From assembly GCF_003991155.1 (NCBI RefSeq), contig NZ_CP031295.1: a stretch of DNA of 64,000 bases. The stretch is one strand, 5' to 3'. The translations under genes and the position numbers were made by a program. This stretch comes from Escherichia coli (GTDB taxonomy: Bacteria; Pseudomonadota; Gammaproteobacteria; Enterobacterales; Enterobacteriaceae). Under the pieces are notes generated by a model, which had not been told where the DNA came from, made no database searches, and worked only from the letters and a program-made list of their open reading frames with translations. This document shows, piece after piece, positions 31,556-32,745 of the stretch (position 1 is its first letter; every line of letters starts with the position of its first letter).

Positions 31556-31773
31556 ATTTATTGTACGGAATCTATCCGTGATTTTGGGGTGGATCGGGTC
31601 GTCATAGTCTGGTGTGAGACTATGTACCGGAAGCTTGAAAATCCCGGATAAAGCCCGCTTTGGCAATGTTTTTGTACCGCATAGATTATGCAAAAATGCG
31701 GAAAGTTTCTTCATAGTCAGCAATGGGACTTGCTCGTGTATATACTGTTTATATATACATGTGGAGGTGACTC
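31556..31773. promoter_or_regulatory. Putative attI/promoter region of the second integron integrase
   Basis: Lies upstream of the divergent intI-like gene; ends at AAATTG|TTAGTC junction. Confidence 0.35.
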
Positions 31774-32745
31774 ATGCGCAAGCCTCATTCGCCGTTTTTG
31801 GCAAGCATCTATGAGCAGATGTTGATGCTGCGTTACGCGATGGCAACCGTTGAAGCCTATCTGCACTGGATCAAGGCATTTATCCGTTTTTCCCGGATGA
31901 AGCATCCGGTCGAGCTGGGTGAGGCGGAGGTTCAGCAATTTTTGTCCTATCTGGTCACCGAGCGCCATGTGGCTGTCAAGACTCAGGCCCAGGCGTTGAA
32001 TGCGCTGGTCTTCTTGTATCGCACTGTCTTGTTACGGCCTCTGCAGCTCGAGATGAAATTTACGCGCAGCCAGCGCCCTCCCAAACTGCCAACTGTTTTG
32101 ACGCAAAGTGAAGTCCGAGCCTTGTTGCTGGCTATGCCAGTTCATCTTCGTCTCTTGGCGCAACTGATGTATGGCAGCGGACTCAGGCTGATGGAGGTGA
32201 TGCGCCTGTGCGTGCAGGATATCGACTTCAACTACCTCTGCCTGATGGTCTGGAATGGCAAAGGGGGCAAGCACAGGCGTGTGACTCTGGCCTCGGAACT
32301 CATTCCGGCCCTGCGGGAGCAAATTGCCTACGTCCAGCGCTTTTATATGACGGACTGCTTAAACGACGCGTATGCCGGGGTGGCCTTGCCGACGGCATTG
32401 GCGCGCAAGTATCCGGCTGCCAGCAAAGAGCTGGGTTGGCACTACCTGTTTCCGGCATCCCATCTGAGTCGCGATCCTGTCGATGGGGCCTTGCGTCGAC
32501 ATCATCTGGATCCAACTACCCTGCAAAAAGCGGTTCGAGCCACGGCGCGTCAGCTACAGCTGGGAAAACCGGTCACCTGTCATACCTTGCGCCATTCCTT
32601 TGCCACCCATTTGCTGGCGCGGGGGGCGGATATTCGAACCGTGCAGGAGCAACTGGGCCATTCTGATGTTCGAACCACACAAATTTATACCCATGTGCTG
32701 CAAAACGGCGCCAATGGGGTACGTAGCCCTTTGTCTGATCTGTAA
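31774..32745 (+). CDS. Integron integrase (IntI family), not IntI1/IntI2/IntI3 by recall
   Basis: 323 aa; roughly 45-50% identical to IntI1 by eye, including the integron-specific LP.AL.RKYP...RRHH insert and [10 protein letters not shown] / IYTHVL motifs. Confidence 0.7.
   Translation: MRKPHSPFLASIYEQMLMLRYAMATVEAYLHWIKAFIRFSRMKHPVELGEAEVQQFLSYLVTERHVAVKTQAQALNALVFLYRTVLLRPLQLEMKFTRSQRPPKLPTVLTQSEVRALLLAMPVHLRLLAQLMYGSGLRLMEVMRLCVQDIDFNYLCLMVWNGKGGKHRRVTLASELIPALREQIAYVQRFYMTDCLNDAYAGVALPTALARKYPAASKELGWHYLFPASHLSRDPVDGALRRHHLDPTTLQKAVRATARQLQLGKPVTCHTLRHSFATHLLARGADIRTVQEQLGHSDVRTTQIYTHVLQNGANGVRSPLSDL

Follow-up and report, generated by a model that had tools for sequence, protein, structure and literature searches.

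How did an integron that does not belong to class 1 come to be fused to the very sequence that follows the cassette array of a class 1 integron on the same molecule? The question is raised by a 64,000-nucleotide stretch of Escherichia coli contig NZ_CP031295.1 (assembly GCF_003991155.1), here called the window, in which an integron integrase gene, whose product we name IntI_new, is transcribed away from its attachment site (attI_new), and the outer edge of that site meets a remnant of the IS256-family insertion sequence (IS) "IS440" lying beside sul3. Five mobile integron classes are usually cited, of which class 1 dominates clinical resistance. The comparisons set out below lead us to favour, with a probability of roughly 80%, a history in which integrase-catalysed recombination between attI_new and an attC site, followed by homologous shuffling over the remnant, best accounts for the junction; on a multidrug-resistance plasmid, one gene-capture system has thus probably recombined with another.

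On the minus strand the attI junction reads ...AATAAATTG|TTAGTCGGACGCC at 31554|31553 (AAATTG|TTAGTCGG), and on the plus strand the attC of qacH in the class 1 integron reads ...TTCAGGTG|TTAGTCGGACGCC at 58075|58076 (CAGGTG|TTAGTCGG), the remnant edge at the junction being also written TGTTAGTCGG. Comparison of the window with itself identified 30513-31555 as the 100% reverse complement of 58074-59116 (1043 bp), a repeat that takes in a TG dinucleotide that attI and the qacH attC both happen to have; because this shared TG is counted in the repeat, the G|TT crossover lies between 31553 and 31554. A scan of metagenomes for the first 22 bases of the remnant returned four contigs, all with the edge at attC or attI crossovers: attI_new stands in front of two (L012 and L015), the qacH attC in front of another (L013), and the attC of an OXA-46-family cassette in front of the last (L014), which reads ...CAAACG|TTAGTCGG and has an Lnu(F)-like cassette ahead of the OXA-46-family one. 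The same junction bases therefore occur at three sites. No base other than G was found directly before TTAGTCGGACGCC in the metagenome scan, and since the scans show only the G of an attC or attI before the remnant, its left edge always lies on an integron crossover point. The first-pass annotation had reported one sequence after both the qacH attC and the attI-like region, had read this as the signature of IntI-type recombination, and had allowed that the match might be a 2-bp coincidence. Both junction strings are present as claimed and both lie at the G|TT crossover of their sites; because the edge equals the qacH attC recombination point and also the end of conservation among attI relatives, two independent sites, we regard it as not coincidental.

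The remnant itself appears, by its content, not to be a discrete IS, nor its edge an IS end. The recognisable IS440 transposase covers only residues ~69-282 of ~390 (30712-31350), the ~68 N-terminal residues not being encoded, and at 30513, where the repeat has its far edge, there is a breakpoint at which a Tn916-type tet(M) segment replaces the sequence and open reading frame (ORF) that in the other copy run on toward sul3. The 3' fragment of an outer-membrane-protein-like ORF (...ASIAYSF RKLKK), on the minus strand at 30441-30716 and located between sul3 and what remains of the transposase, spans the tet(M) breakpoint and offers a clue to the original host of the sul3 module. Contig L014 (Ga0302253_1004469, 1-5000) is an unusual sul3-linked array in its own right: without qacH, the IS440 remnant and sul3 are immediately preceded by a beta-lactamase cassette of the OXA-46 family, and the contig further has a nucleoside-phosphorylase-like ORF and a diverged gene resembling Lnu(F) (337 bits against a cutoff of 450).

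The region upstream of the integrase gene, attI-like according to the first-pass annotation, is on this evidence the cognate attI of IntI_new, since conservation ends at G|TT and different partners follow there; its length is 220 bp and not the 218 bp first given (Table 1). The crossover falls between 31554 and 31553, at ...CCGTACAATAAATTG|TT, and in nine comparisons conservation across independent relatives ends exactly at that point, i.e. at AATAAATTG|TT. A relative whose integrase is 92% identical (L002), Aeromonas veronii (L003), plasmid pLNU-11 (L009) and an Aeromonadaceae metagenome-assembled genome (MAG; contig L019) all read ...CCG(T/G)ACAATAAATTG|TT(A/G) and lose similarity there. At least five different partners follow the G of the same attI (at least 98% identical): the IS440 remnant in the window and ~95 plasmids, a TTGTGCG cassette in Klebsiella pneumoniae KPA2 p2 (L016), TTGGGCG at the start of the leading cassette in an array of ~12 genes on Klebsiella sp. 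pRHBSTW-00464_5 (L021), TTATATC of a dcm-like cassette in metagenome contig L007, and TTGCACT adjoining an IS91-family gene in sewage-metagenome contigs L004-L006. The motif TGTAC(C/G)G is present in three copies within 120 bp of attI, with recurrences at 31623-31629 and 31673-31679, and these repeats may be accessory integrase-binding repeats.

Table 1. Coordinates of the IntI_new platform, the sequences joined to it and their inverted counterpart in the window.
Feature	Position	Strand	Remarks
sul3	29647-30438	+	On the far side of the remnant in the window
IS256-family ("IS440") transposase remnant and adjoining sequence	30513-31553	+	Starts TTAGTCGGACGCC on the minus strand
attI and intI promoter region	31554-31773	-	220 bp; cassettes would read on the minus strand
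attI core	31554-31568	-	CCGTACAATAAATTG; contains the palindrome ACAAT-AA-ATTGT
LexA-box-like CTG-N10-CAT	31745-31760	+	13 nt upstream of the intI start codon
intI (IntI_new)	31774-32745	+	Uninterrupted ORF, 323 residues, Aeromonadaceae-type integron
Native 3' flank of IntI_new	32746-32974	+	229 bp, cut off by IS5
IS5-like element	32975-34169	+	1195 bp; no target-site duplication (ACAG left, CTAA right)
qacH attC of the class 1 integron	58022-58075	+	Ends at G 58075; the next base opens the second remnant copy
Second, inverted remnant copy, 100% identical	58076-59116	+	Followed by tet(M) (59437-61371, minus strand)

The protein encoded beside this site is, by every comparison we made, a genuine and intact integron integrase that stands apart from those of classes 1, 2 and 4, the ones compared. 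IntI_new matches the TIGR02249 "integron integrase" model over the whole profile (1-315 of 315) with 446.7 bits against a cutoff of 265, stays below the cutoff of the PRK15417/NF011946 "integron integrase" equivalog model (294.9 vs 435), which we take to be IntI1-type, and is hit by XerC and XerD models in two separate stretches only; its Pfam domains are an N-terminal SAM_4 and a catalytic Phage_integrase. The integron-specific insert (~residues 183-232, between patches II and III) aligns gap-free with IntI1 and VchIntIA, and R138, K163/K166, H270, R273, H296 and Y305 are invariant across IntI_new, the IntI1 of the window, VchIntIA and the four relatives aligned. Identity is 46.3% to the IntI1 of the window (52250-53263, minus strand), 45.9% to an annotated intI2 (tblastn) and 58.4% across 317 aligned residues to VchIntIA/IntI4. 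The earlier description of an intact gene, aligned with IntI1 over its full length including the insert at about half identity and without a match to IntI2, accordingly holds in each particular. No plasmid-borne match of 60-95% identity occurs among the best 5000 listed, and the NCBI pipeline names the protein (WP_032482493.1) generically as "integron integrase". IntI_new looks functional from its sequence, and junctions at crossover points, together with cassettes in a sibling plasmid 100% identical to the window (KPA2 p2, below), are indirect signs that it may be active today. Downstream of the gene no synteny is shared with relatives, the native fragment stopping at IS5 229 bp past the stop codon. 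In metagenome contig L007, IS5 lies 17 bp further 3' of intI_new than in the window, at CTAA, and this position together with the absent target duplication suggests an IS5-adjacent deletion in the plasmid lineage.

Gene cassettes with an attC are absent from the attI of the window, as the term "cassette-less" in the first-pass annotation had it, but the term fails for the lineage, in which two Klebsiella plasmids carry cassettes at the same attI. K. pneumoniae KPA2 p2 (NZ_CP102989.1, IncC), the one plasmid that deviates among the 96 PLSDB plasmids with this attI, is 100% identical to window positions 31552-33331 (1780 bp) and differs by a 1434-bp insert lying precisely where AAATTG meets TTAGTCGG (7567-9001 of L016). 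The insert comprises two units, each bounded by G|TT and each closed by an Aeromonadaceae-type attC, a ~80-bp element that is nearly the same in both and has the inverse cores GCACAAC...GTTGTGC; we identified these attCs by inverse core sites, by the recurrence of the ~80-bp unit and by boundaries at G|TT, and not by folding energy, their folding z-scores being modest (-1.4 to -1.5). The first cassette has no clear ORF, and the second encodes a 253-residue HEPN-domain protein with an acidic repeat, which matched no NCBIfam or PADLOC family and for which a defence or toxin role is possible. The same attC family follows the first cassette of L002, recurs five times in the array of pRHBSTW-00464_5 and has six occurrences, spread over four contigs, in an uncultured Aeromonadaceae MAG. 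KPA2 p2 shows further derived changes, a truncated IS5 and an IS1595-family insertion, the latter 98.5% identical to an element inside the pRHBSTW-00464_5 array. On its simplest reading, a plasmid that already had the attI|remnant junction gained these cassettes and the IS from an Aeromonadaceae pool; alternatively, KPA2 p2 may keep an older state, which would equally need integrase-type events at the same bond. The second plasmid, pRHBSTW-00464_5 (NZ_CP056487.1, IncP, from UK wastewater effluent), carries attI_new at 99.4% identity in region 1903-9600, with ~12 hypothetical cassette genes, five Aeromonadaceae-type attCs and the embedded IS1595-family element; only the first 108 bp of its intI are left, an IS21-like element having removed the remainder, and the plasmid also holds a class 1 integron (dfrA1-aadA1).

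Related arrangements were seen on other molecules. Positions 1-6605 of pLNU-11 (NZ_KX863568.1, IncP-6, from a wetland) contain a related attI, TCCGGCTAATAAATTG|TTATGT, with leftward hypothetical genes resembling a cassette array and, ~2.7 kb from attI, the last 134 codons of intI_new (99%); an integron remnant goes unmentioned in the original pLNU-11 paper. In the sewage-metagenome contigs L004-L006, 99%-identical intI and attI sequences are followed, after GTTG, by an IS91-family (Y2) transposase sequence in two diverged variants, which may represent a cassette or an IS91-type insertion.

We propose that attI_new would have recombined with the attC that ends a class 1 cassette array, the qacH attC (G|TTAGTCGG) of a sul3-type or Tn6942-type class 1 integron, in a reaction that would delete or exchange the DNA between the two sites and leave attI_new directly abutting the IS440 remnant found after qacH in sul3-type integrons and Tn6942. 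The catalyst would most probably have been IntI_new rather than IntI1, because attI sites are generally cognate-only: one report describes attI sites as used only by their cognate integrase and attCs as used promiscuously (PMC2095811). Class 1 is favoured as the earlier holder of the remnant because class 1-linked copies are abundant and the module has no native Aeromonadaceae context. Later homologous recombination between inverted 1043-bp remnants would then have swapped the sul3 and tet(M) flanks, with sul3-remnant-attI/intI_new and qacH-remnant-tet(M) as the end state.

The proposed second step accords with the flanks found around the remnant, which occurs as (a) qacH-remnant-sul3 in canonical sul3 class 1 integrons (e.g. 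L013), (b) attI_new-remnant-tet(M) in the Salmonella plasmid p770-MDR (L001, CP060845.1) and, by its described gene order, in Tn7124, (c) attI_new-remnant-sul3 at 29647-32745 of the window, and (d) qacH-remnant-tet(M) at 57673-61371 of the window, resembling Tn6942. Plasmid p770-MDR matches window positions 30513-45050 at 100% but has tet(M) to the left of the remnant, and the ~95 PLSDB plasmids with the attI|remnant junction divide into 79 of type (b) and 16 of type (c). The window holds types (c) and (d) in inverted orientation with 26.5 kb between the remnant copies, and it looks like the product of an inversion between the remnant copies of (a) and (b), its parent looking like a plasmid with both a canonical sul3 class 1 integron and a Tn7124-like unit. 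With tet(M) as the outer neighbour of the remnant in 79 plasmids and sul3 in only 16, the sul3 linkage of attI_new looks secondary and is best put down to a homologous exchange, or an inversion, that took place later over the 1043-bp remnant. The join between attI and a "sul3 module" therefore survives as a join, with its partner redefined as the IS256-family remnant and not sul3 as such, and we found no evidence that the sul3/remnant module originated in the IntI_new integron. Elsewhere in the same mosaic, a Tn3-family transposase gene fragment cut by IS26 (36104-37620) shares 82% nucleotide identity with the transposase gene at 48111-49573, so that two different Tn21/TnAs-type transposons fed into it.

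Several observations weigh against integrase-catalysed joining. The reciprocal product, a qacH attC followed by a cassette of the IntI_new integron, was not found, and a search of PLSDB with the dcm-like cassette start of L007, as a candidate reciprocal product or earlier cassette, returned no match. About 95 of the 96 PLSDB plasmids with this attI are cassette-less despite class 1 cassettes in the same cells, which argues for low integrase activity in Enterobacterales, and the cassettes of KPA2 p2 could be ancestral rather than acquired. The core GTTAGTC deviates from GTTRRRY at one position. The LexA-like box upstream of intI_new is degenerate in its second half-site (CAT, not CAG), as in the relative L002, which likewise has CTG-N10-CAT, and perfect CTG-N10-CAG boxes occur in the more distant relatives L003 and L019; the degenerate box may mean weaker SOS repression of intI_new. 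A simple consensus scan detected no cassette promoter in attI, only one weak promoter toward intI, and the number of sites was no higher than in shuffled sequence. Finally, the origin of the first join, that of a recombination site to the interior or edge of the IS440 remnant, is left unexplained.

The same junction could have been built in the opposite direction, the remnant module having stood first at an attI or attC of an Aeromonad-type integron and passed later to the class 1 array with qacH, in which case sul3-type class 1 integrons would owe their unusual 3' region to the IntI_new integron. Nothing in the junction sequences, which are symmetric, reveals a polarity, the remnant of KPA2 p2 directly follows an Aeromonadaceae-type attC, and both kinds of integron coexist on plasmids (the window and pRHBSTW-00464_5). 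We nevertheless think this direction unlikely, given that ~1018 PLSDB plasmids match a sul3-remnant-attI query and 884 carry the remnant transposase at 99% identity or more, against 96 with this attI; that the attI-linked remnants mostly lie beside tet(M), a derived insertion; that no Aeromonadaceae or metagenome context has the module in a native array; and that KPA2 p2 bears the other lineage-specific derived changes described above.

Two further accounts dispense with an integrase, and we give little credence to either. In one, IS440 transposed into the qacH attC and separately beside intI_new, so that G|TT reflects the target preference of the IS; a candidate degenerate transposase C-terminus (IRTFP...) ends ~14 bp from the remnant edge, and TGTTAGTCGGAC may bear a weak resemblance to IS256-type terminal repeats. 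What moved, however, would be a remnant without its N-terminal third and its other end, the copies stay alike past the edge, through non-IS sequence as far as sul3 or tet(M), the crossover phosphodiester is the exact point of joining at three different recombination sites, cassettes were later inserted at the same bond in KPA2 p2, and the two junctions lack what would mark an intact IS440, terminal repeats and target duplications of 8-9 bp; such transposition is very improbable. Independent IS256-family transposition as the source of both junctions was rejected, the repeat being an internal transposase fragment and its far edge the tet(M) breakpoint. The other account treats IntI_new and its attI as an inert relic in an IS26/IS5 mosaic; TG microhomology would have led to the junction through illegitimate recombination, and relatives with cassettes would be older, unrelated states. 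The 1.4-kb fragment is indeed bordered by an IS5 without target duplication, many plasmids have the gene truncated at 32231 by other insertions, and the cassette-less copies are uniform. Set against these points, a frame that runs without interruption and at 100% identity across more than 60 plasmids, a breakpoint on the crossover position of two independent sites, and two cassettes precisely at that bond in a plasmid otherwise identical to the window over 1780 bp make a relic hard to credit.

Within a collection of 5.8 billion protein sequences, the nearest relatives of IntI_new are unnamed sewage-metagenome proteins (99%, 92% and 87% identity), followed by proteins of Aeromonas veronii (79%), an Aeromonadaceae MAG (78%), Plesiomonas (73%) and Tolumonas (65%). 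The best explanation is that the IntI_new integron is native to Aeromonadaceae-like bacteria and escaped onto plasmids. In the uncultured Aeromonadaceae MAG CAMFKP01 (L017-L020), the IntI is 67% identical yet shares the ~80-bp attC family, with matches of up to 100% over 75 nt; one attC family is thus common to fairly divergent integrases, that of CAMFKP01 and those of the integrons at 92-100% identity to IntI_new.

The IntI_new platform is a mobile integron, present on mobile elements in several hosts. The 96 PLSDB plasmids come from Escherichia (66), Salmonella (24), Klebsiella (3), Shigella (2) and Enterobacter (1), with sources that include pigs, pork, poultry, dogs, wastewater and humans; their replicons include, by PLSDB typing, IncHI1A (p770-MDR), IncC and IncP, and an IncR replicon has been reported for this unit (PMC11539080). 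The gene is intact in at least 63 plasmids and truncated at position 32231 of the window in ~30 others, and 50 of 5426 complete E. coli genomes (~1%) carry this attI. We found no literature that defines the attI, origin or junction of this integrase, and to that extent the label "uncharacterised integron class" stands. It does not stand for the gene itself, which has been drawn and mislabelled in at least two papers: the map of Tn7124 labels it "IntI4" or "IntI3" without analysing attI, junction or origin (PMC11539080), and a tet(X4) plasmid paper draws it as "delta-intI4", also without analysis (PMC9396132). The label is weakened further by a related chromosomal integron of Aeromonas described in 2023 (PMC10609294).

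On the sequences at hand, we would describe the element as an integron ordinary in kind, belonging to a mobile lineage that was apparently unrecognised before and that combines evidence of cross-class recombination with cassette carriage in Klebsiella. A bolder interpretation, which we hold only tentatively and consider rather doubtful, is that of an active, unrecognised mobile integron class in Enterobacterales that uses class 1 attCs and imports non-resistance cassettes of Aeromonadaceae onto IncC, IncP and IncHI-type plasmids, the HEPN-domain gene of K. pneumoniae KPA2 being an example of such an import; its strongest version would add the role of donor of the IS440-sul3 3' region. Either way, a further integrase/attI platform from Aeromonas-like water bacteria, overlooked or mislabelled as IntI4, sits on ~100 sequenced plasmids, where it offers environmental cassettes a plausible second way into resistance plasmids and is a naturally occurring example of integron classes interacting, attI_new having apparently recombined with a class 1 attC. 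Polymerase chain reaction and annotation schemes limited to intI1-3 overlook IntI_new, and the "intI4" label in published maps needs correction.

That correction follows from the known systems with which the window can be compared. VchIntIA (IntI4 of the Vibrio cholerae chromosomal integron, PDB 2A3V) is the best match of solved structure (390 bits, residues 6-322 gap-free), and its residues touching the extrahelical attC bases are, by eye, kept in IntI_new; at only 58% identity, with another native host family, attI and attC family, we conclude from the alignment that IntI_new is not IntI4. Nearer in kind are the Aeromonas chromosomal integrons, among them the "class 4-like" integron of Aeromonas sp. 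genomospecies paramedia 3925 (PMC10609294), likened here to that of the window by its description, whereas the closest named integrase measured is that of A. veronii (79%). As in the window, intI diverges from attI and the crossover reads ...AATAAATTG|TTA in A. veronii (GCA_029164125.1, L003), where a LexA box, of which the window has a degenerate counterpart, precedes intI; these integrons, however, are chromosomal and carry cassette arrays, whereas the window has a 1.4-kb intI-attI piece that is plasmid-borne, cassette-less and joined to an IS remnant. The sul3-type class 1 integron (intI1-...-qacH-IS440-sul3-...-delta-mef(B)-IS26) and Tn6942 share with the window the same remnant start base after G|TT, but the integrase of the sul3-type integron is 46% identical, its attI is unrelated to attI_new and, unlike it, attI_new in the window is without resistance cassettes. 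By gene order, both Tn7124 (IS26-ctp-lp-tet(M)-hp-"IS406 tnp"-"IntI4"-IS26; PMC11539080) and the segment [delta-intI4-IS440 tnpA-tet(M)-delta-IS26] (PMC9396132) contain the same tet(M)-remnant-intI unit as p770-MDR; both carry tet(M) beyond the remnant, whereas the window has the tet(M) and sul3 flanks swapped, and a Tn7124-type unit is the likely parent of the arrangement described here.

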